Below, piece by piece: positions 2,264-33,063 of a stretch of DNA of 64,000 nt. The notes beneath the pieces are model-generated. The model was not told where the DNA came from. It saw only the letters and a list, made by a program, of their open reading frames with translations, and made no database searches. Position numbers and translations under genes: made by a program. How positions within the stretch are numbered: the first letter of the stretch is position 1; each line of letters begins with the position of its first letter. Source of the stretch: Chloroflexota bacterium. GTDB taxonomy: Bacteria; Chloroflexota; Dehalococcoidia; SHYD01; JACQUQ01. The stretch spans positions 142-64,141 of the forward strand of contig JACQUQ010000025.1 of assembly GCA_016210175.1 (NCBI GenBank). The letters run 5' to 3'.

Positions 2264-5200
2264 CGCCAGCCTCCTTGCGGCACGAGCCAGGTCACCGCAG
2301 CTGGGAAGAGCGTCGTGCGGGTCACGGCGTACCTGCGCTCAATAGCGTCGCGCTCCCGTTCCAGTTCGCCGGGGAGTTCCTGGAGCCGGTTGCGGAGGTT
2401 CTCCCGGTCGCGCTGGGCCTGATCCGTCTCCAGTTCATCGAAGTGCATGATCAGCTGCATGTTTTCCTTGAGTTCCATGTCCTCAAGGCGGCGCTGAATA
2501 TCGCGCCGCAACTCGTCAATCACCGCCTCCAGAGCGGCGCGCTCCTCGTCACGGTGCTGTTGGAGCTGGCGCTCCAAGCCCCGCGCCACCTCTTCCTTGC
2601 GGGCCTCCAGCGCCTGCATGAGCCGCGCTTCGACGTTGGGCCAGAGGGCAGCCAGGCGCGCCCGATCCGCTGGGGCGGCCTCTCCCTCCACCGCCGATTG
2701 CAGCGCCGCATCCGCCTCGCCCACGTTCAGGCGGGCAAAGACGCCGCCGCGGATGCGTCCGCCTGCCTGGATCAGCGCCTCGTGAAGCCGCCGTCCGTCA
2801 GCCCCGGTGACGGCCACCCGCGCGTGCGCCACCACCGCCAGTTCCTCCCGGCGAGCGGGACGCGCCGTGATCCGGGTGACCGCCCGCATCGAAGCGGGCG
2901 CCCAAAGCTCCGAGCGCAGCAGCCGCATGGCGTGCGCGGCAAGGGGGTGTCCGAGATGGACGAGCACGACGTCGTCCCGGCGCTGCGCGGCGATGGCGTG
3001 ATCGAAGGTGATCGGACGGCGGTGACCCTTGAGAGGATGGTAGAGATCGAGCACCGTGCGCGCCCACGAGAGCGTGAGGTCGGGCACCGTAAAGAGCCCA
3101 GGTTCCCCTGCCACCGGCTGCAACGGCCGTTGCTTGGCCAGCGCCAAGCCGCAGGACACCATGCGCTCCACGGTTTGCGGGGAGAGATTCAGCTCCTCGC
3201 GCGAGGCGGTGAGCCTGTCCCGCAAGCGCTCCACTTCAGCCCGCAGGTTGCGCTCCAACGCCAGCGTCCTGCGGGCGCTCTGCCGACTGGCGAGGGCCGT
3301 GTCGTCCAAGGTCCGGCGGCGGCCCAGCATGGCCTCTTCGATTTGCTGCGCCAGCACCTCCCCGGCCGAGCCGAGGTCGTTGCGGATGGTCTCTACTTTC
3401 CGTGCCACCAGCGCCAGGATATCGAGGTCGAACTCCAGGCTGCCGGGTTCCGCGTGCTGGAATCCCGTTGGCACGAAGTGGTGGATCAGCACCTCGGGAG
3501 CGGTCTGGCCGTGGCGGTCCACGCGGCCATTGCGCTGTTCCAGCCGGACCGGCGACCAAGGGATCTCATAATGACAGAGCCGGTGACAGTAGTTCTGAAG
3601 GTCAATGCCTTCGCTGGCGGTGTCGGTGGCAACGAGGATGCGCAGCGGATACTCGGTGGGGTCGGCTTGAAATTGCGCCAGCAATTGCTCCCGCCGGGCC
3701 TCATCCATCGCGCCGTGGACGACGCCCAGGCGCTCCCCGCCCAGTCCCTCGGCGCTGAGCAGTTGCTCGATCCACGCCTGCGTATCGCGGTACTCCGTGA
3801 AGACAATGACCCGCTCGTTGTTCCACAGGCCATCCGGGCGGCAGACCTGCGCGATCCAGTCGATCAGTGCGGTGGCGCGAGCGTCCCGCCGGTATGCATG
3901 CCGCTCCGCCCACTCCCGAAGCTGCTTGAGCAGATCCCGCTCGTCAGCCGTAAGGGAACGCATGACGCGACCGGCAGCGGCCAGCCCGTCCTGGACAGCG
4001 GCGGGCTGCTCCATCCGAAGCTCACTATCAAGGGCCAGATCGTCCGGGGTGAGATCGTCCGCGCCCTGGAGCAAGGCCCGGAGTTCCCGCTCACTCGGTT
4101 CCGGCACGCCCTCATACCGCGCCAACGTCTTCAGATGCTCTTCCAGAGTGTTGCGGAAGGCAACGGTGGACGAGAACATCCGCTTCTTGAGGAGCTTTGA
4201 CACGAACTCCGCGGCGATACGCTGACGTTGGCCGGTGTTGCCATTTGCCCGCGACGCGGCATACTGGGTCAGGAGCCGGTGGGCCTGCCGTTCCTCATCG
4301 GTGTAAGTGACCTCAATGGGAACGATTTCGCGGCGAGCGAACCGGCGCGACCCGTCGGCGTTGGTGATTTCCTCCTTCAGGCGGCGCACCATCACCTGCG
4401 CCAGCGCCGTCTTCGAGGGTTCGACACCGCGGGCGAAACGCTGCGGGTCGAGTAATTCCAAGAGCGCCGTGAACGACTCGGTGTAGCCGTTGTGTGGTGT
4501 GGCCGACAGGAACAGGCGGTGCTCGAAGTGGGGCGCTAGTTCTCGAATGGTTCGCGTGCGCTGGGAGTCCACGGCATATCGCCCGCGGCCGCTGGGGGCA
4601 CAGTCGTGAATTTCGTCCACGATGAGGAGATCGAACGCGCGAGGATACCGGGTGGGATCGTGGCCTGCCAGCGACTGGCGGATCAGCCGCATCCCCCGCG
4701 TATCCTTCAGCCAGTCAATAGAGACAATATTACGGGGGAACGCGGTGAAGACGTTGGCGGCAACGCCTTCTTCGCGCCGGAGGTTCCGTACGGCATCTGC
4801 GTCGATAATGCGAAACTCCAAGCCGAACTTCTCGTGCATCTCCCGCTGCCATTTCAGTTTCAGGTTGGCGGGACAGACGACGAGTACAGTGCGGGCGCGA
4901 TACCGCAGCAGCAACTCTTGCACGACAAGGCCGGCTTCGATGGTCTTGCCCAAGCCGACGTCATCAGCGATGAGGAGATTAGCGCGCGGCATGGAGAGGG
5001 CGCGCACCGCCGGATCAAGTTGATAGTCGTCGAGGGTGATGCCTGAACGGAAAGGGGCCTGGAGAGAGCGGGTGTCCGCAGAAGCGATGGCCCCCCAGCG
5101 GACAGCATCCAGGAACGCTGCATGCATTTCCGCTGCGTCGAAGGCCCCATCGGCTGGCATCGCAGGAAGCGTGCTCGTTTCCAAAATCGCGGTATTCGGC

Positions 5201-18925: not shown

Positions 18926-19993
18926 TCACGCCGCTGCGCCTCGCAGGGCGGCGTCCGGTCCGGCGGTATCGCCCTGCTCGACGACATCGAATGCGCCGGA
19001 GTCCAGGTCGAGGACCACTACGGACGTGCGCAGCACCTCACGCTGGATCTCGGTGTTCTCGTCATCGCTCTCGACGGGGACCAGCTCTTTGCGCGTGCGG
19101 CCTTTGACCAGCACCCGCCGCCCGCCTTGCTGCAGCACGACGTTGTTGAGGAGGCCGGCCGCGATAAGGAGGGCAAGATGGCCGCGTCGCAGCGGCATGA
19201 GGGGCCGGACCGGCCGTTCGGCGGGCGGCCATAGCTGTTCAGCAAACGCGGGCTGGACCCAGACCCCGCGCCGTCGGGCCTCCTGCGCTGCGAGCGCGGG
19301 GTCGAAGGCCAGCGGCGCAAAAAGGACATCGGTCCGCGGCAGCGCCGGCGCGACCAGCGGCGGCGTTGCCGGGCCATCGGGCAGCGGCGGCAACGCCCGG
19401 ATGCTCCACGACTCCAGTTGCGCCTGCGCCTCCCCGTCAGGTATGGCCTGAGCCTTCTTCACGGCCAGCAGCACCATTTGCTGAAAGGCGGCGAACTCCG
19501 GGTCCGGGAAGCGGTAGACCCGGAAACCGGTGTAATGCGCCGCCAGATAGCGTGCCGAGACGGCGAGCCGTGCCTGCGGGATGACGAACACCAGGACCCC
19601 GCCCGGACACAGCGCCCGTGACAGACTGGTGAGGAAGGCATGCTCGAGCCGGCGTTTTTCGTCGTCATAGTCGTAGGGCGGGTTCAAGTACAGGCACGAA
19701 AACGCGCCGTTGGCCAGCCGGACGGAGAACGCGCTGGTGGCGAGGAGGTGGTCAAGCCGGGCCCGGCACGCCTCCGCCCGCTCGTCGTTGATCTCGATGC
19801 CGTAGCTCTCGCCACCGAGGGCCTGCGCGAGGGCGGACACCGGCTCGCCGGTGCCCGCGCAAGGGTCAAGGAGGCGGACAACGCGCCTCCGGTCAGTTGG
19901 CGTGGCCGCATGCAACAGGTGACTGAGCGCGGTCACCACACGCGGCGGCGTGGGGAAGAACCCCGCTACGGCCTGACTTTCGAGGCGAGACAT
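18926..19993 (-). CDS. Orphan SAM-dependent DNA methyltransferase (N6-adenine type, NPPY)
   Basis: 355 aa with LLDPCAGTGEP (motif I) and YLNPPYDYD (motif IV). No adjacent endonuclease was recognised. Confidence 0.8.
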   Translation of the reverse strand: MSRLESQAVAGFFPTPPRVVTALSHLLHAATPTDRRRVVRLLDPCAGTGEPVSALAQALGGESYGIEINDERAEACRARLDHLLATSAFSVRLANGAFSCLYLNPPYDYDDEKRRLEHAFLTSLSRALCPGGVLVFVIPQARLAVSARYLAAHYTGFRVYRFPDPEFAAFQQMVLLAVKKAQAIPDGEAQAQLESWSIRALPPLPDGPATPPLVAPALPRTDVLFAPLAFDPALAAQEARRRGVWVQPAFAEQLWPPAERPVRPLMPLRRGHLALLIAAGLLNNVVLQQGGRRVLVKGRTRKELVPVESDDENTEIQREVLRTSVVVLDLDSGAFDVVEQGDTAGPDAALRGAAA

Positions 19994-25574: not shown

Positions 25575-26150
25575 CTATCCAAAAAGGGAAAGCTGGTCGG
25601 ACGACGCTGCCCGCCCGCCCGGCTTGGGAGCAGGCGGAGTGGTGGGCGTGTCGGGCGTCGGGTTCGGGTCCGGCACGGGAACGGGGCTAGCGGACTTGCC
25701 CTTACCCCGACGCTGCTCCGGTGAGGCGGTGGCGGGCAGCGTGGAGGGATAGCGCGGCTGCACCTGCCAGCGCGCTGCAGCGTCAGCGAACAGACCGGGC
25801 ACTTGGTCGAGAGCAGCCGACAGGTCAGTGACCTCGACGGACCGCAGCAGCGGATCGCATCCCTCCATACCCACCGCCAGCACTGCCCGGTAGCCTATCC
25901 CAGCCTCCGGCTGGAGGGTGATAACGAGCTTGATCCCGCGCCGGGATTCGGTCGTTGTCGGGACGGCCGGAGTCGCCGTCGGCGCCTCGGCCATGGGCGG
26001 AACCCCCTGCTCCTCCGCGGGAATCCCTTCGTTACGGGTCACGCCGCGGTGCACGGAAATGGGCGACTGCGCGCAGCCGCAGCCGTCAACCGGCTGCGGC
26101 GCCTCGTCACTCGTCAGCAGGCGCTTGCCCTGCTCCTCGGGTGTGTCCAC
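25575..26150 (-). CDS. Pro/Ala-rich protein ending in a beta-clamp-binding-like peptide (PRTRC protein E-like)
   Basis: GTG 26150 has AAGGAG 7 nt upstream (alternative ATG at 25994). The C-terminus is ...GGRAASSDQLSLFG. Confidence 0.6.
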   Translation of the reverse strand: MDTPEEQGKRLLTSDEAPQPVDGCGCAQSPISVHRGVTRNEGIPAEEQGVPPMAEAPTATPAVPTTTESRRGIKLVITLQPEAGIGYRAVLAVGMEGCDPLLRSVEVTDLSAALDQVPGLFADAAARWQVQPRYPSTLPATASPEQRRGKGKSASPVPVPDPNPTPDTPTTPPAPKPGGRAASSDQLSLFG

Positions 26151-26257
26151 GAATGGTCTCCTTCTCGAGTGCGGGGCGGACGTTACCCCATCTGCTGGAT
26201 AATCGCCGCCCCGCACGTCGTGCTTTAGGCTGCGGCCGCCTCAGCTGTGACTTAACC

Positions 26258-26401
26258 CATAATGTGGCCGTGCTGGAAGCATAACTTGGCCGCACTGGGT
26301 CTTTGGGCAGGCTCCGTTCCCCGGGGCCTGGACGAACTCACGCGGTCTCGCTGGAACCATAACCTGGCCGCGAGTCGCGATGGGCATCATAAGCTGGCCA
26401 C
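26258..26401 (+). repeat. Four direct copies of the end-binding motif CATAAnnTGGCC(G/A)C at the tnsAB-proximal end
   Basis: Copies at 26258, 26280, 26358 and 26388. Two are embedded in a 22-mer GCTGGAA(G/C)CATAAC(T/C)TGGCCGC (26272-26293, 26350-26371). Confidence 0.8.
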
Positions 26402-26473
26402 AAATTACCCTCCTCTACCTACCTGTGTTAGCATCAGAGCATTCGGCTACTCGCCTTACTGGAGGAGACCGCG

Positions 26474-29164
26474 ATGCTCAGCAACGACGAACTGGCCGCG
26501 CTCTGCCTGCGCCTCGGTCTCTCGGAGCAGGCCAAGGCGGTCGTCGCGTCGGTCCGCTCGGCGCCTCCGTCCCGCAGGGTACGCGGCGCCGCGGGCAATG
26601 TTACCGTTCGCTATCCCAGCCGGAAGATGGGCGTCACCATTCAGGCGGAGAGCCACCGCAACGAACTGGCCGGCATCTACGAGAAGGAACACGACCCTGG
26701 GACGCTGGAGTTCTACGACCAGCCACCCCCGATCAAGCTCCGCTACCAGGCCAGCAATGGTCGGGCCGTGGGTGTCCTCCACACCCCCGACTACTTCGTG
26801 ATCCACACCGACGCGGTCGGGTGGGAAGAATGGAAGACCGAGGCCGAACTGCTCAAGCTGTCCGAGAAGATGCCGAACCGCTACCGGCGCGACGAGGAAG
26901 GCCGCTGGCGGTGCCCGCCGGGCGAGCGGTACGCCGAGCAGTTCGCCTTTGTTTACCGCGTGCGCTCTTCGGCCGAGATCGATTGGGTCTTCCAGCGCAA
27001 CCTCCTGTTCCTTGAGGATTTCCTCCGCGGCGATTGCCCGCCTGTGGGCGAGCACGCTGCCGTAGCGCTCATCGCGCTCGTGACGAAACGGCCCGGAATA
27101 CGGCTTGACGAGCTCCTCGGGCAGGTGGAGGGGGCCAGCAGCGACGATATCTACACGCTGATCGCCACGGATCGGCTCCACGTTGACCTGCGGGCCGCGG
27201 CACTCGCCGAGCCGGAGCGCGTGCTGGTGTTCCGCGATGCGGAGACGGCCCGCTCCCATGCAGTGATCGCCCCGGCAGCTTCCCTACCGCCGGGTGGCAG
27301 CGGTGGGAGCCTGACCCTCGCCCCCGGCGCACCCGTCCTCTGGGATGGCCAACGCTGGACGGTCATTAACCTCGGGCGGAATCTGACCGCGCTCCTTGCC
27401 GAAGACGCGACCCTGGTCGAGTTGCCCAACGCCACGCTCGCAACTCTGGTCGGCCAGGGCAAGCTGGTCGGAGTGGCCGGCCCAACGCCGGCAAGCATCA
27501 GCGCCGCGGCGCGGGAGCGGCTTGCCCAGGCTGGCCCCGACGACCTCCGTGAGGCCAACCGTCGCCACGCGCTCATTGCCTCCATGCTGAGCGGGGACGC
27601 CGCGGCCGCGGCGGCGACGCCGGCGCGCACCCTCCGGCGCTGGCTCGGGCGGTGGCGCCAGGCCGAGCGCACCCATAACTGCGGCTATGTCGGGCTCCTG
27701 CCGCAGCAGCGCCGGCGCGGCAACCGCACGCGCAAGCTCCCGGAGGCAACCCTGCGACTGCTCGACGAGTTCATCGCCAAGGACTACGAGACGCTCAAGC
27801 AGAAAGGCAAGTTCGCGGTGTACGCGGCCTTGATGCGCACGTGTGAGGAGCAGGGGAGCACCGTCCCGAGCTACAAGACGTTTATCCGCGCCGTGAACCG
27901 GCGCCCGCGCCAGGAGCAGATGGAGCAACGCCAGGGAAAGCGGGCTGCCTACCAGGCAGCTGCCTTCTTCTGGGAACTGGCGCTCACGACGCCGCGCCAT
28001 GGTGACCGGCCCTTCGAGATCGGTCACATCGACCACACCCAGCTTGACATCGAGCTGGTCTGCTCGCGCACCGGACGCCCTCTCGGCCGGCCCTGGGCGA
28101 CGTTTCTGACCGACGCCTCTTCCCGGCGGCTGCTGGCCGTCTCCCTCACTTTCGACCCGCCCAGCTACCGGAGTTGCATGATGATCCTACGGGAGTGCGT
28201 ACGCCGGCATCAGCGGCTGCCACAGACCGCGGTGGTGGATGGTGGCGCCGAGTTCGAGAGCGTCTACTTCGAGACCTTGCTGGCCCGGTACGAGTGCACC
28301 AAGAAGACCCGACCCAGCGCCCAGCCCCGCTTCGGCTCGGTCTGCGAACGGCTGTTTGGCACGACCAATACCCGCTTCATCCACAACCTCGTCGGCAACA
28401 CCCAGATCCGCCAGAAGGCCCGCCAGGTGACCAAGAGCGTCGACCCCAAGCAGCACGCTTGCTGGACGCTCGGTCGGCTCTCCACGCGGCTCTGCGAATG
28501 GGCCTACGAGGTCTACGACACCATCGAACACCCGGCCCTGGGGACCACGCCCCGCGAGGCCTGCGCGGCCGGGCTCGCCCAGAGTGGCTGGCGACCCCAG
28601 CGACGCATCCCCTACGACGAGGATTTCCGTATGCTCACTCTCCCAACCACCCAGAGGGGCACCGCCCGCCTGCACCCCCGTCTCGGGGTGAAGGTCAACT
28701 ATCTCTACTACTGGTCGGAGGCATTCCTCGACCCGGAAGTGCACGGCGCCCGCGTGCCGGTGCGCTTCGATCCCCTCGATGCGGGGCAGGCCTACATCTT
28801 CGTGAAAGGCCGCTGGGTCCGCGGCATCTCGGAGCACCGCGCCTGCTTCGCCGGGCGATCGGAGCGGGAGATCCAGTTGGCGACCGCGGAGTTGCGCCGC
28901 CGCCACCAGCGGCACGGCCAACAGTTCACGGTCACCGCGCGCAAGCTGGCCGACTTTCTGGCCTCGCTGGAGGCCGAGGAGGCCCTGCTGGAGCAGCGTC
29001 TGCGTGATGCCGAGGCCAAGGAGGTCATCCGCAACGTTGCGGATGACCAGCCATCCCCACCCACGGCGCCCGAGCGTGCAAGCGCAGCAGGGGCAGCAGC
29101 GCGGCAACCCGCCGAAACGTCCGGGCGGAACGGCGTCGCGCTGGTCATCTACGAGGACTATTGA
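26474..29164 (+). CDS. Fused TnsA-like endonuclease / TnsB-like DDE transposase
   Basis: 896 aa. GGAGGAG upstream of the start. The N-terminal ~190 aa (IQAESHRNELAGIYEKEHDPGTLEFYDQPPPIKL...HTPDYFV...WEEWK) look like the TnsA restriction-endonuclease fold. An rve/Mu-type core follows (FEIGHIDHTQLDIELV...). Confidence 0.8.
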   Translation: MLSNDELAALCLRLGLSEQAKAVVASVRSAPPSRRVRGAAGNVTVRYPSRKMGVTIQAESHRNELAGIYEKEHDPGTLEFYDQPPPIKLRYQASNGRAVGVLHTPDYFVIHTDAVGWEEWKTEAELLKLSEKMPNRYRRDEEGRWRCPPGERYAEQFAFVYRVRSSAEIDWVFQRNLLFLEDFLRGDCPPVGEHAAVALIALVTKRPGIRLDELLGQVEGASSDDIYTLIATDRLHVDLRAAALAEPERVLVFRDAETARSHAVIAPAASLPPGGSGGSLTLAPGAPVLWDGQRWTVINLGRNLTALLAEDATLVELPNATLATLVGQGKLVGVAGPTPASISAAARERLAQAGPDDLREANRRHALIASMLSGDAAAAAATPARTLRRWLGRWRQAERTHNCGYVGLLPQQRRRGNRTRKLPEATLRLLDEFIAKDYETLKQKGKFAVYAALMRTCEEQGSTVPSYKTFIRAVNRRPRQEQMEQRQGKRAAYQAAAFFWELALTTPRHGDRPFEIGHIDHTQLDIELVCSRTGRPLGRPWATFLTDASSRRLLAVSLTFDPPSYRSCMMILRECVRRHQRLPQTAVVDGGAEFESVYFETLLARYECTKKTRPSAQPRFGSVCERLFGTTNTRFIHNLVGNTQIRQKARQVTKSVDPKQHACWTLGRLSTRLCEWAYEVYDTIEHPALGTTPREACAAGLAQSGWRPQRRIPYDEDFRMLTLPTTQRGTARLHPRLGVKVNYLYYWSEAFLDPEVHGARVPVRFDPLDAGQAYIFVKGRWVRGISEHRACFAGRSEREIQLATAELRRRHQRHGQQFTVTARKLADFLASLEAEEALLEQRLRDAEAKEVIRNVADDQPSPPTAPERASAAGAAARQPAETSGRNGVALVIYEDY

Positions 29165-29165
29165 G

Positions 29166-30359
29166 ATGCCGACCGTACCAGGCTTCCCGCGTGAGCTTCT
29201 CGCCCAGCCCAGCGCAGCGCGCTTGGCCCACTTCGTGGGCAAGGTGGTCGCCCATCCGCGGCTGAAAGCGGTACACCACGCCCTGCTGAACGCCATCCGC
29301 CAGCCCATGGGCGCGCCCCTGGTGCTCGTCGTCGGTCCGACCGGGGTCGGCAAGACCACGCTCCGCCTCCGCATCGAGCAGCAGTTGATGGAGGAGGCGC
29401 TGCCCGATCTGGCCCAGGACCCCAGCCGTATCCCGGTGGTGGCGGTAGAGGCAGCGGCCCCCGAGTCGGGCCAGTTCAACTGGAAGGATTACTACACGCG
29501 CGCCCTGATGGCGCTGGACGAGCCGCTCGTCGCGCACAAGGTCGACTACGCGACCTGGGGCCTCCGCCGCGATGGCCGCGGGCGCATCGCGATTAAGCGC
29601 GGCGCCGCCACGCCGGAACTGCGCCTGGCGCTGGAACAGTGCCTGCGCTACCGGCGGCCGGCGGCCTTCATTGTGGATGAGGCCCAGCACCTCAAGAAGA
29701 TGGCGAGCGGACGGCGCCTGCTCGATCAGATGGATACGCTCAAGTCCTTGGCGGCCATGACGGGCACGGTGCACGTGCTGGTGGGCACCTACGAGTTACT
29801 CGGCTTGGCCAACCTCAGCGCGCAACTGAGCCGGCGCAGCATCGAGATCCACTTCGGGCGCTATCAGGCCGAGTCTGCCGACGATCTCCTGGCCTTCCAG
29901 AGCGTCGTGCTCACCTTCCAACGCCACCTGCCCCTGGCCGGCGAGCCCGACCTCATTGGACAGTGGCAATACCTCTACGAGGGTTCCGCCGGCTGTATTG
30001 GGGTGCTCAAAAGCTGGCTAAACCGTGCGCTGGCGGCGGCCCTGGACCTGGGCGAACCCACGCTCACGCGGCGGCGCCTGGAGCGACAGGCCGCACCCGC
30101 GCGCAAGCTGATCAGCCTGGTCCGCGAGATCAAGGAGGGCGAGGAAGCGCTGCGGGACGACGCTCGGGAGCGCGACCACCTGCGTACCCTCCTGGGGCTG
30201 GAGGACGGACCGGCCCCGTTTGGCGCGGCGAAGGCGAACGCGGCGGCCAGCATGGAGCCGGCCGCGCGGCGTCCCCGACGTCCCGGTGGTCGTGCTGCAC
30301 AGCGGCGGCCGACGCGCGACCCGGTGGGTCAGGGGAGGCCTGAGCATGGACCTGCGTGA
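29166..30359 (+). CDS. TnsC/TniB-like AAA+ transposition ATPase
   Basis: In-frame ATG 29166, 2 nt after the tnsAB stop. Has LVLVVGPTGVGKTT (Walker A) and FIVDEAQHL (Walker B). Confidence 0.85.
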   Translation: MPTVPGFPRELLAQPSAARLAHFVGKVVAHPRLKAVHHALLNAIRQPMGAPLVLVVGPTGVGKTTLRLRIEQQLMEEALPDLAQDPSRIPVVAVEAAAPESGQFNWKDYYTRALMALDEPLVAHKVDYATWGLRRDGRGRIAIKRGAATPELRLALEQCLRYRRPAAFIVDEAQHLKKMASGRRLLDQMDTLKSLAAMTGTVHVLVGTYELLGLANLSAQLSRRSIEIHFGRYQAESADDLLAFQSVVLTFQRHLPLAGEPDLIGQWQYLYEGSAGCIGVLKSWLNRALAAALDLGEPTLTRRRLERQAAPARKLISLVREIKEGEEALRDDARERDHLRTLLGLEDGPAPFGAAKANAAASMEPAARRPRRPGGRAAQRRPTRDPVGQGRPEHGPA

Positions 30360-31740
30360 CCTCGTGGTCTACGAGGAATGGGACGTGGCGCCGCCGGCGG
30401 TCCCGCCGCGCGGCCGCCTGTTCCCGTTGGCGCCGGTCGGGATCGGGACTCCGGAAACGGAGTGCTTGACGAGCTATATCACCAGACTTGCCGAGGCCCA
30501 TGGCGTCCTCACCCGAGACCTGGTCGTTCACGAGCTTGCCGGCTTTCTGGGGCGCGCCCACCTGGCGCAGAGCCGCAATCTGGGCCTGCTGTCGGCCTTC
30601 TGGCGCAACGAGACCCGCGCGCTTAACGGTACCCGGACGCTCGCGCACAACATGGTGCAAGGGCTCGAAGCTTTGACGGGGCGGCAGGGGCTGCGCTTTC
30701 TGACGCTCCTGACCTGGACCGAGGTTTTGCCAGTCCAGCAGCTGCAGCGGCGCAGTCGCGCCTGGTGTCCCCATTGCTACGAAGAGTGGCGGCAGGCCAA
30801 GCAAACGGTCTACGAGCCGCTGCTCTGGTCCTTGGCGCCCGTGACTATCTGCCCGCGCCATCGCCGGCTCCTGCAAGGGATCTGTCCCTACCCGGACTGC
30901 CGGCAGCGTTCACACTGGCTCTCCGCCCGGTCACGCTGTGGCTACTGTGCCCGCTGTGGCCGCTTTCTTGGCAGCTCAGTGGCGCCCGCGGCCGACGAGG
31001 GTGATAGCCTGACGGAACAGGAGGCAATGGCGCGGATCTGGGTGGCGCACGCCGTGGGAGAGCTCATTGCAGCCGCACCCGGCTTGGGCTTTGTGCCACG
31101 ACGAGAACAGATCGTGGACGCCATTACGGCCTCGGCGGAGCGGTTGACCGGCGGGAATATCAGCGCCTGGGCCCGCAAGCTGGGCATGGCGGTGCTGACG
31201 GTGTCGAACTGGAGGTGGAAAGAGGCGCGACCATCCCTCTGGCTCCTACTGCAGGTCTGCGCTCGTCTGGGGACGACACCGCTTGGCTTTCTGACGGGTG
31301 AGGCCAGCCAAGTGAGCGGGCAAGCGGTACTGCGGCACGAGTTGGCCCATCGCCCGCCGCGGGTCCACACGGTGGTCGACCCCAAAGTGGCCCGCCGCGC
31401 CCTGGAGCAGATCCTCGCCGGCGACGAGATGCCGCCGCCATCGCTCCGCGAGGTCGGTCAGCGGCTGGGGCTGACCTACGCTACCTTGCGTCACCATCTG
31501 CCCGAACTGTGCCGCGCCATCTCCGAGCGGTATCGCAACTATCAACTGGCCCAGGCCGCCGAGACCAGGCGACGGCTCTGCCAGGAGGTGCGCGAGGCAA
31601 CGCTGCGGGTTCACGAGCAGGGGGTGTTTCCCAGTTCCTACCGCATTGAAGCGCTCATCGGCCGACCCCATGCGCTCCGACATCGGCCAGCCAGAGAGGC
31701 GTGGCGCAAGGCGTTGCGTGAGTTGGGCTGGCAGACGTGA
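30346..31740 (+). CDS. TniQ/TnsD-family target-selection protein
   Basis: In-frame ATG 30346 (MDLRDLVVYEE...). TniQ N-domain (ETECLTSYITRLAEAHGV). Cys clusters WCPHCYEEW, CPRHRR, CPYPDC, CGYCARCG. Confidence 0.8.
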   Translation: MDLRDLVVYEEWDVAPPAVPPRGRLFPLAPVGIGTPETECLTSYITRLAEAHGVLTRDLVVHELAGFLGRAHLAQSRNLGLLSAFWRNETRALNGTRTLAHNMVQGLEALTGRQGLRFLTLLTWTEVLPVQQLQRRSRAWCPHCYEEWRQAKQTVYEPLLWSLAPVTICPRHRRLLQGICPYPDCRQRSHWLSARSRCGYCARCGRFLGSSVAPAADEGDSLTEQEAMARIWVAHAVGELIAAAPGLGFVPRREQIVDAITASAERLTGGNISAWARKLGMAVLTVSNWRWKEARPSLWLLLQVCARLGTTPLGFLTGEASQVSGQAVLRHELAHRPPRVHTVVDPKVARRALEQILAGDEMPPPSLREVGQRLGLTYATLRHHLPELCRAISERYRNYQLAQAAETRRRLCQEVREATLRVHEQGVFPSSYRIEALIGRPHALRHRPAREAWRKALRELGWQT

Positions 31741-31767
31741 CGCAGGACCATCGCCAGCCAATCGTCT

Positions 31768-31804
31768 GCTGGAAGCATAACGTGGCCGCTGCGGCCACAT
31801 TATG
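31768..31804. repeat. Two head-to-head end-binding motifs at the tniQ-proximal end
   Basis: GCTGGAAGCATAACGTGGCCGC, then t, then GCGGCCACATTATG. This forms a near-perfect 14+1+14 palindrome. Confidence 0.75.
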
Positions 31805-31811
31805 GGTTAAG

Positions 31812-32948
31812 CTACACCTGAGTCTGGCGCTGCATGAGCGCAGCGTCATAGAGGGGCATGATGACCCACAGGTCGCCAGCCTCCGGCTGCCCGGTCTGCC
31901 GAACGACCACCGGCGCCTGGGGACTGGTCCAGGCCATATCCAGGTGCGGGCCGCTGGCTGCGTCGAGGAGGTCGGCGAGCAGCCTGGTGTTCAGGACGAC
32001 TGCCCCCGGTTCCCCCTCGACCCGAACAGCGATCTCAGAGTGGGCATCGCCGACGTCATCGCCGCGGGCGTGAAGATGCAGCCGGCCAGCCTCGGCATCA
32101 AGCCGCACGGGCCGCGCTTCGCCCGCACCGAAGAGACTGGCGACCCGTACCGCCTGGCGAAACGCGGTGGTCTCAATGGTGACGCGGGTTGTCCACTCCT
32201 GCGGGATCACGCGTTCGATGTCGGGAAAGCGACCGTCCATCAGCTGGGTGAAGAGCGTTGTCTCTTTCACCCTGAGGTAAAGGCCCCGCCCATCCGGGGT
32301 CGGAACCAGCCGGGCGGCCTCGCCGCCATCCAGCAGCCGGCCAAACTCGACCGCGGCACGAGCGGGGACAAGAAGCTGCCGGGTGGCGCCGACCGCTTCC
32401 GGCACCCGCGAGCGGGCCAGGCGGAAGCTATCTGCGGCGGCAAGGCTGAGCCCCTCGGGTCCGAGGTCGAACAGCACGCAGGAAAGCACAGGACGGCTCT
32501 GATCGCGGGAGGCCGCGAAGGCGACGCGGGTGATCGCATCCTGGAGCCGCTGCCCGTCAAGCTCAAGGGCCTGCGCATCATCGGCCGCGGGAAAGACCGG
32601 AAAGTCCTCCGGGTCCGCGGTGGCCAACGCCGCCTGGAATCGGTCACACACAGCGCGTACACGCTGCGTGCCGGAATCAAGCGTGAGGCGCAACGGCTCT
32701 GCGGGGAGCTGGCTCACGTATTCGCTGAGCAGGCGCGCCGGAATAGCGGCTCGACCGGCGGCCGCCACGTCCGCGGCCAGGGTGATCGTGACTCCGAGTT
32801 CGCCGTCCGCAGCCGTGAGACGCAGACGGCTGGGCTCCGCCTCGAGCAGCACCATCTGGAGAATTGGCAGGGCTGCCTTGGCCGGTGTTATCCGGGCGAC
32901 CAGGCGCAGTGCCCGGCCCAGGGTCGATTGGTCAATGGTCAGGTCCAT
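31812..32948 (-). CDS. dnaN: DNA polymerase III beta sliding clamp paralogue
   Basis: Start at Met14 of the track ORF (MDLTIDQSTLGRALRLVARI...) with AAGGAGG 6 nt upstream. 378 aa with typical three-domain length and pattern. The last codon and the TAG stop lie inside the transposon end. Confidence 0.85.
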   Translation of the reverse strand: MDLTIDQSTLGRALRLVARITPAKAALPILQMVLLEAEPSRLRLTAADGELGVTITLAADVAAAGRAAIPARLLSEYVSQLPAEPLRLTLDSGTQRVRAVCDRFQAALATADPEDFPVFPAADDAQALELDGQRLQDAITRVAFAASRDQSRPVLSCVLFDLGPEGLSLAAADSFRLARSRVPEAVGATRQLLVPARAAVEFGRLLDGGEAARLVPTPDGRGLYLRVKETTLFTQLMDGRFPDIERVIPQEWTTRVTIETTAFRQAVRVASLFGAGEARPVRLDAEAGRLHLHARGDDVGDAHSEIAVRVEGEPGAVVLNTRLLADLLDAASGPHLDMAWTSPQAPVVVRQTGQPEAGDLWVIMPLYDAALMQRQTQV

Positions 32949-33063
32949 CGAGAACCTCCTTGTGGTTGCACGGGAGCATGGGGGCATCCCGGAGGGCGCG
33001 ACAGAAGAGCGTCAGCAGTGGGGATTCCCCGGCTGTCTTGCGGCCAATACGATCTCCGTCTGG

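Follow-up and report, generated by a model that had tools for sequence, protein, structure and literature searches.

A cargo-less Tn7-like transposon at the 3' end of an accessory dnaN gene in Chloroflexota, and a probable target motif shared by its relatives

In this article, we discuss a Tn7-like transposon found in a 64,000-nucleotide stretch of DNA from a Chloroflexota bacterium (GenBank assembly GCA_016210175.1, contig JACQUQ010000025.1; this whole stretch is called the window), where it separates the end of an accessory dnaN gene, encoding a beta clamp, from a cassette of PRTRC-type (ubiquitin-like) genes. A preliminary description had given the element TGT...ACA tips, 25-bp imperfect terminal repeats and the genes tnsAB, tnsC and tniQ with no cargo, and both the repeats and the open reading frame and domain content agree with this, while its limits, first placed at 26240-31822, had to be drawn in to those listed in Table 1. 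The genes occupy 26474-31740, so that the non-coding remainder within the element amounts to 228 nt on one side and 76 nt on the other, and no cargo, cas genes, CRISPR array or second small TniQ lie inside it. The start of tnsC is probably the ATG immediately 3' of the tnsAB stop.

Table 1. Coordinates (window positions) of the transposon, its ends and genes, and the features that flank it.
Feature	Position	Strand	Remarks
Whole element	26246-31816		5,571 bp; TGT...ACA tips
Terminal inverted repeat, tnsAB-proximal end	26246-26270	+	Begins TGT; 23/25 positions match the other arm
Terminal inverted repeat, tniQ-proximal end	31792-31816		25 bp
Four transposase-binding-site-like 17-mers, tnsAB side	26255-26271, 26277-26293, 26355-26371, 26385-26401	+	All in one orientation
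tniQ-proximal 'left end', target-facing	31773-31816		Holds two binding-site-like 17-mers and the terminal repeat
Two 17-mers, tniQ side	31773-31789, 31791-31807	+, -	Opposite orientations
tnsAB	26474-29164	+	896 aa; TnsA endonuclease fused to TnsB DDE transposase
tnsC	29166-30359	+	AAA+ regulator; Pfam AAA_22 and TniB; probable start ATG 29166
tniQ, TnsD type	30346-31740	+	Target selector; PF06527; 464 aa (gene-caller form)
Accessory dnaN	31812-32987	-	Three beta-clamp domains; TIGR00663, 206 bits
Displaced native dnaN 3' end	26225-26245	-	Glu-Ala-Ala-Ala-Ala, then TAA 26225-26227
Putative TnsD recognition motif	31845-31861	-	Over dnaN Ile-Met-Pro-Leu-Tyr-Asp codons; ends 28 nt before the insertion point
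First gene of PRTRC-type (ubiquitin-like) cassette	25575-26150	-	GTG 26150; AAGGAG upstream
Stem-loop between native dnaN stop and first cassette gene	26169-26216	-	-50.9 kcal/mol, z -4.8, without U-tract

All three proteins match those of PmcCAST, a type I-B2 CRISPR-associated transposon whose TnsABC structure is PDB 9BW1 according to a preprint. TnsAB, with the Pfam domains rve and Mu-transpos_C, was compared by overall alignment and pairs its residues 11-857 with 9-856 of PmcCAST TnsAB (9bw1 chain M, 1057 bits); TnsC matches PmcCAST TnsC (8fcu_Q) over query residues 59-443 with 401 bits; and TniQ matches PmcCAST TnsD (8v32_J, also in 9bw1), residues 6-461 to 6-461, with an E-value of 9e-96. 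These matches place the element in the TnsAB-fusion clade of Tn7-like transposons (Hsieh and Peters, PMC9881144), which includes the type I-B2 and I-D CRISPR-associated transposons and Tn5469, and, judged by its sequence, it is the TnsAB-TnsC-TnsD core of that clade without CRISPR genes, second TniQ or cargo. It is not itself a type I-B2 or I-D CRISPR-associated transposon, since its three genes fill it, nor a member of the Tn5053/Tn402 group, since a TnsA-homologous N-terminus is present and a resolvase gene is not among its genes.

The ends tell the same story when compared with those of the clade (PMC9881144), in whose naming the tnsAB-proximal end is the 'right end', only the left end is reported to carry sites in both orientations, and the left end of McCAST faces the target in >99% of insertions. 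The ends of the window element are likewise asymmetric, with both 17-mer orientations on the tniQ side only, and the 17-mer core CATAA-NN-TGGCC recurs at the ends of related elements. A repeat search also offered 42-nt extended terminal repeats (83%), which we rejected because their outer 17 nt on both sides are dnaN coding sequence, homologous to the tails of paralogues, and the pentamers CTCAG and CTGAG, once suspected of belonging to the terminal repeats, are likewise dnaN coding sequence flanking the insertion.

Where exactly the element sits in dnaN required one correction. It does supply the last Val codon of the gene (31815-31817) and its TAG stop (31812-31814), as had been described, and this had been taken to mean insertion exactly on the stop codon; however, the displaced tail and TAA listed in Table 1 survive beyond the opposite tip, and as this left flank keeps a run of Ala codons and a TAA that match a paralogue's tail and the ...AA* ending of ~85 of 97 homologues, the native stop lies on the far side of the element. 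On this reading of the flanking codons, the insertion is inside the dnaN coding sequence, 4-6 codons before the native stop. The paralogue in question (contig C210, locus L016, 3182-5547) is a second accessory dnaN with its own PRTRC-type cassette in the same genome, 61% identical to the interrupted gene (the housekeeping dnaN, also present, is 37% identical), and it served as the uninterrupted dnaN-PRTRC junction with which comparison had been recommended, locating both native tail and stop: its site is unoccupied, its dnaN terminates in an Ala codon run and TAA, and the order dnaN, stem-loop, homologue of the first cassette gene and PRTRC_C is unbroken. Accessory clamps as a group (the window's and homologues P0002-P0097) have a variable tail followed by a conserved Ala-Ala dipeptide in ~85 of 97, which is reminiscent of a degradation tag, and the transposon takes this dipeptide away from the clamp of the window, which now reads Gln-Val, as it does in a second locus, L030, described below; one homologue, P0057, likewise ends in Val.

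The preliminary description also reported that no 5-bp target duplication could be found, and this is so, since the TCAGC and CCTGA flanks agree at 2 of 5 positions and no 5-bp direct repeat abuts the tips. Perfect 5-bp duplications do occur in 11 relatives, including five miniature derivatives, and the missing duplication is therefore a peculiarity of the window copy or its assembly and not of the family. The dnaN frame is restored only by removing 1, 4 or 7 junction bases, none of them a clean repeat, and the flanks are what would be expected if two insertions, at points separated by four bases in one native sequence, were joined via the element by recombination or by the assembler. In contigs from four groundwater runs of one study, the likely source of the window, breaks fall exactly at 26246 and 31816, the element is covered 2-3 times as deeply as its flanks, one contig leaves the tniQ end for an unrelated flank, and in one run depth over the left flank is roughly double that over the right. 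Identical copies of the element thus lie in other contexts too, and the source comprises more than one strain. Strain mixing, recombination or chimeric assembly may lie behind the missing duplication. No empty-site joint across 26245/31817 was found in the contigs of the four runs, and no other copies were found in the same genome. We infer that the element is active, and recently so; the displaced dnaN tails and stops are still intact at both accessory sites at which it or a relative has been found.

Known protein-guided attachment sites of Tn7-like elements include glmS, tRNA genes, comM, parE, ffs and CRISPR repeats. The preliminary description had put forward dnaN as a possible new one, and had proposed to look for related elements at other dnaN 3' ends, a search that proved positive, with two further cases in the same orientation. 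In the first (L030/L121, a metagenome-assembled genome from another Chloroflexota family), the element lies between the same two genes and at the identical codon of accessory dnaN, is bounded by a perfect CCTGG 5-bp duplication, and leaves a reconstructed empty site that ends Gln-Ala-Gln-Ala-Ala-stop, the consensus tail. The second (L132/L134) concerns a dnaN of canonical length with three domains, which shares 36% identity with the dnaN of the window and stands among different neighbours; here the element, whose TniQ is 55% identical to the window's and which carries a cargo gene with a Clp_N domain, ends 17 nt beyond the stop codon. The distance from the ATG of the Met-Pro pair to the junction is 43 nt in the window, 43 nt in L030/L121 and 41 nt in L132/L134, the tniQ-side end adjoins dnaN in all three, and the three TniQs fall in one clade of the tree. 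A search of species genomes with a junction pattern yielded only one dnaN case besides that of the window. No mention of dnaN as a Tn7-like attachment site was found in the literature searched in full text, where DnaN appears only as a host factor of TnsE, and the gene goes unmentioned in papers that deal with Tn7 target selectors and cargo.

Could the two accessory-dnaN insertions descend from one ancient event in an ancestral PRTRC island, their shared position being inherited rather than chosen anew? Between the window and L030, flanking genes and transposon genes have diverged to a similar degree, as this would predict (dnaN 64% identical, PRTRC_C 68%, TnsAB 69%, TnsC 65% and TniQ 55%), but a perfect duplication in L030 and untranslated displaced tails and stops that are intact in both loci would be unlikely after such divergence, most accessory dnaN copies are empty, the L132/L134 case lies in an unrelated dnaN among other neighbours, identical copies of the element occupy other contexts in the source sample, and the TniQs of the window and L030 are not exclusive sisters in the tree. 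We regard common descent of the insertions as very improbable. The empty copies can be counted: among 401 sampled Chloroflexota genomes, 5 hold 7 accessory dnaN copies, of which two are occupied and both read Met-Pro-Leu-Tyr-Asp; the other five are empty, and in four of these His or Val takes the place of the Tyr.

Relatives were gathered by their end motif (95 stretches in species genomes) and by TniQ-profile scans (80 loci in metagenomes and 80 in genomes); scanning species genomes with a single protein brought up just four loci, all distant, and no TniQ was found among 60 relatives of the same order and class. In every resolved case the tniQ-side end faces the target, and the flanks on that side fall into classes that follow the TniQ tree, namely tRNA gene 3' ends (confirmed by Rfam), a conserved GC hairpin, and protein-coding sequences with a shared word. 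This word is a motif of ~17 bp with the logo consensus TCAWNCCNCYCTAYGAC, which ends 27-30 nt from the junction. Among 20 unique flanks of elements whose TniQ is 40-56% identical to the window's, 14 carry TAY at -36 to -32, as against 2.1 on average and never more than 9 in 5000 shuffles, and the positional profile peaks only there. Neither the window nor the 3.47-Mb genome contains an exact match to the motif other than the occupied dnaN site, 31845-31861. The near-invariant CC step of the motif recalls, by analogy, the CC/GG intercalation reported for PmcCAST TnsD.

These flanks speak to a second alternative, insertion without sequence targeting, as has been proposed for Tn5469, with the copies seen here surviving because they do little harm. 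The gene content of the window element equals that of Tn5469 (PMC9881144) and its copy has no target duplication; nevertheless, independent loci share nucleotide-identical positions and the same orientation, the flank motif is enriched far above shuffles, and the type of target (tRNA, hairpin, methyltransferase or dnaN) tracks the clades of the TniQ tree, which makes untargeted insertion extremely hard to credit.

The methyltransferase targets need fuller treatment, since they are the basis of the most serious alternative. In sister elements with a TniQ 40-48% identical to the window's, the motif corresponds to the (Asn/Asp)-Pro-Pro-Tyr region of DNA methyltransferase genes. Genes of the DUF6094 type are split at four independent sites (L166, L184, L092/L235 and L154), and further sites are an HsdM-type gene and several Asp-Pro-Pro-Tyr sites without a Pfam match; in these and the other methyltransferase-gene sisters (L160, L169, L172, L094 and L231) the insertion lies 27-30 nt after the (Asn/Asp)-Pro-Pro-Tyr codons, or 33 nt in L231. 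That the methyltransferase gene was split by the insertion follows from L092, where a methyltransferase frame of at least 294 aa is regained once the element and four bases are taken out. The motif is also found within a serine recombinase gene and an IS630-type transposase gene. In L166/L167 and L235, a dnaN-like gene (with 27-29% identity to that of the window) immediately precedes the split DUF6094 gene, so that the family recurs in clamp-bearing mobile modules.

It might be argued, then, that dnaN is no dedicated site at all, and that the clade homes to the (Asn/Asp)-Pro-Pro-Tyr motif of methyltransferases on mobile elements, of which the dnaN tail and the IS630-type gene are mere look-alikes. 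The DUF6094 genes with their four sites, the Asp-Pro-Pro-Tyr motifs and the HsdM-type gene share the register seen at dnaN, only a few positions distinguish the dnaN motif from its methyltransferase counterpart, and the IS630-type sites occur within the dnaN-targeting clade. Set against this, the subclade at ~55% identity has dnaN at three of its five distinct resolved sites, including a canonical dnaN whose Met-Pro-Met-His-Val is no longer NPPY-like, and the window's own orphan NPPY methylase, which belongs to the island and carries a one-mismatch motif (19670-19686, minus strand), is unoccupied. We judge this explanation unlikely, if clearly less so than the two discussed above.

Starting from what can be observed directly, namely the anatomy and homology of the element, three dnaN-adjacent insertions in one orientation and register, an enriched motif and multi-copy depth, we consider it probable that the element is a Tn7-like transposon of the TnsAB-fusion clade, autonomous and without cargo, whose TnsD-type TniQ homes to a ~17-bp motif at the 3' end of dnaN. 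The selector would bind the motif, which in dnaN extends over the codons for a conserved (Ile/Val)-Met-Pro-(Leu/Met) stretch close to the clamp's C-terminus; TnsC would relay this recognition to TnsAB, and TnsAB would cut and paste the element 27-30 nt beyond the motif, always with the tniQ-side left end facing it. Because canonical dnaN ends soon after the motif, this spacing would place the element between genes, just past the stop, in a safe site of the glmS/attTn7 kind, whereas the accessory dnaN of PRTRC-type mobile islands has a longer tail and would therefore be clipped, the element landing 4-6 codons before the stop and exchanging the last residues for one Val. Recognition probably rests on a short DNA motif that spans the conserved Met-Pro codons. 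With less confidence, and as a tentative idea that may well prove wrong, the TnsD clade could have been retuned stepwise along one motif to conserved coding motifs in genes that mobile elements carry, from the catalytic NPPY of methyltransferases, where the gene is destroyed, through the Met-Pro-Leu-Tyr-Asp of the accessory clamp to the universal Met-Pro-Met of canonical dnaN, where the site is safe, which would make these elements sequence-guided hunters of other mobile elements, with dnaN as a new chromosomal harbour.

Several observations weigh against homing to dnaN and should be seen together. Only three dnaN events are known; two close relatives are inserted in an IS630-type transposase gene that shares the motif; the fifth empty accessory copy, C210, does have the Tyr and differs from the motif by one mismatch elsewhere; one genome (G231) holds a close element together with an empty accessory dnaN and has the element located elsewhere; the motif was partly derived from the window's own site, so that its uniqueness in the genome is partly circular; and the duplication that relatives display is missing from the window copy. 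The earlier proposal of a new attachment site is supported, in corrected form: dnaN is a recurrent target with no precedent found in the literature searched, but not a proven exclusive one, because the short motif is also present in IS630-type genes and in the methyltransferase genes of sister clades.

On the other side of the element, the preliminary description correctly gave a gap of ~95 nt to the GTG of the first cassette gene, and its statement that the insertion separates dnaN from the ubiquitin-like cassette is confirmed by the uninterrupted order in C210, the distance from dnaN to the first cassette gene now being 5.7 kb instead of ~70 nt. The stem-loop between the native stop and the cassette, which has counterparts at the equivalent position in C210, L030 and L216, may be a processing or attenuation signal; a scan of 26050-26500 gave no promoter-like or terminator-like sites.

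The wider family offers further observations. Another TniQ clade (L042, L061/L204, L062, L076, L110, L125, L194 and L200) inserts 25-35 nt after a conserved hairpin, GGGTGCCCCCCTCACCC, which is followed by a T run and has no Rfam match. Miniature derivatives of 309-580 bp with the family's ends, presumably mobilised in trans and in most cases bounded by perfect 5-bp duplications, lie in L037 (1043-1780, two side by side), L104 (653-987), L112 (1687-2266), L147 (2290-2598) and L093 (122-488), and in L136 (~3310-3345) two element ends are 8 bp apart, one element adjoining another, an arrangement unexpected under target immunity. Eight loci (L146, L149, L152, L153, L155, L157, L161 and L162), a subgroup of the clade, have in common ~70 nt of conserved AT-rich sequence past the first end-like site, representing either an extension of the end or a target that they share, and several TniQ homologues are labelled by their sources as XRE-type helix-turn-helix (HTH) proteins.

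What would it mean if TnsD does read the end of dnaN? To our knowledge, this end is conserved in essentially all bacteria, and the element would therefore have a nearly universal landing site, reached by a compact three-protein machinery of which a close homologue has been solved by cryo-EM. The comparison of flanks further suggests that target specificity drifts between unrelated genes via a shared short DNA word, and that some relatives knock out methyltransferase genes, while in the window genome the insertion severs a spare clamp gene from the ubiquitin-like cassette that normally follows it.

Among known systems, PmcCAST (type I-B2, from a Peltigera membranacea cyanobiont; PDB 9BW1, 8V32 and 8FCU) has the same fused TnsAB, TnsC and a TnsD of ~462 aa that aligns end to end, as well as TGT/ACA tips and TnsD-directed homing with one fixed end facing the target; unlike PmcCAST, the window element has no second small TniQ, cas genes, CRISPR array or cargo, its host belongs to the Chloroflexota and not to the cyanobacteria, and its target is a coding motif at the end of dnaN rather than a tRNA gene. 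The cargo-less cyanobacterial TnsAB-TnsC-TnsD elements found at CRISPR repeats (Mob DNA 2025, PMC11837452) belong to the same clade and have the same three-gene architecture; their target has shifted from tRNA genes to a new, short conserved motif, which keeps a constant distance of 40-50 bp to the left end, while the motif of the window spans ~29-45 bp from that end; they do without the C-terminal HTH of tRNA-targeting TnsD, and they differ from the window element in target sequence and biological context. Tn5469 of Fremyella diplosiphon also combines a TnsAB fusion, TnsC and one TniQ with no cargo (PMC9881144), but it came to light as a spontaneous mutagen and is regarded as untargeted, whereas the clade of the window element inserts in a position- and orientation-specific manner. 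With Tn7, whose TnsD reads glmS at attTn7, the likeness is that a selector recognises conserved 3' coding sequence of an essential gene and directs insertion to a set distance beyond it, a description that fits the L132 case; in Tn7, however, TnsA and TnsB are separate proteins, and the end turned towards glmS is the tnsA-proximal one, whereas in the window element it is the tniQ-proximal end that lies next to dnaN, and insertion into accessory dnaN changes the last residues of the protein. Elements of the Tn6022 type at comM are likewise Tn7-like elements with an attachment site within a gene, which is relevant to the methyltransferase-splitting sister clades, although their selector, TnsF, is tyrosine-recombinase-like (PMC10293859) and their transposase belongs to another clade. 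The kind of element, and the retargeting of TnsD within its clade, are thus already known, with a close precedent in the CRISPR-repeat elements (PMC11837452), and what is new is dnaN as a target, the Chloroflexota host range and the apparent link to methyltransferase motifs.

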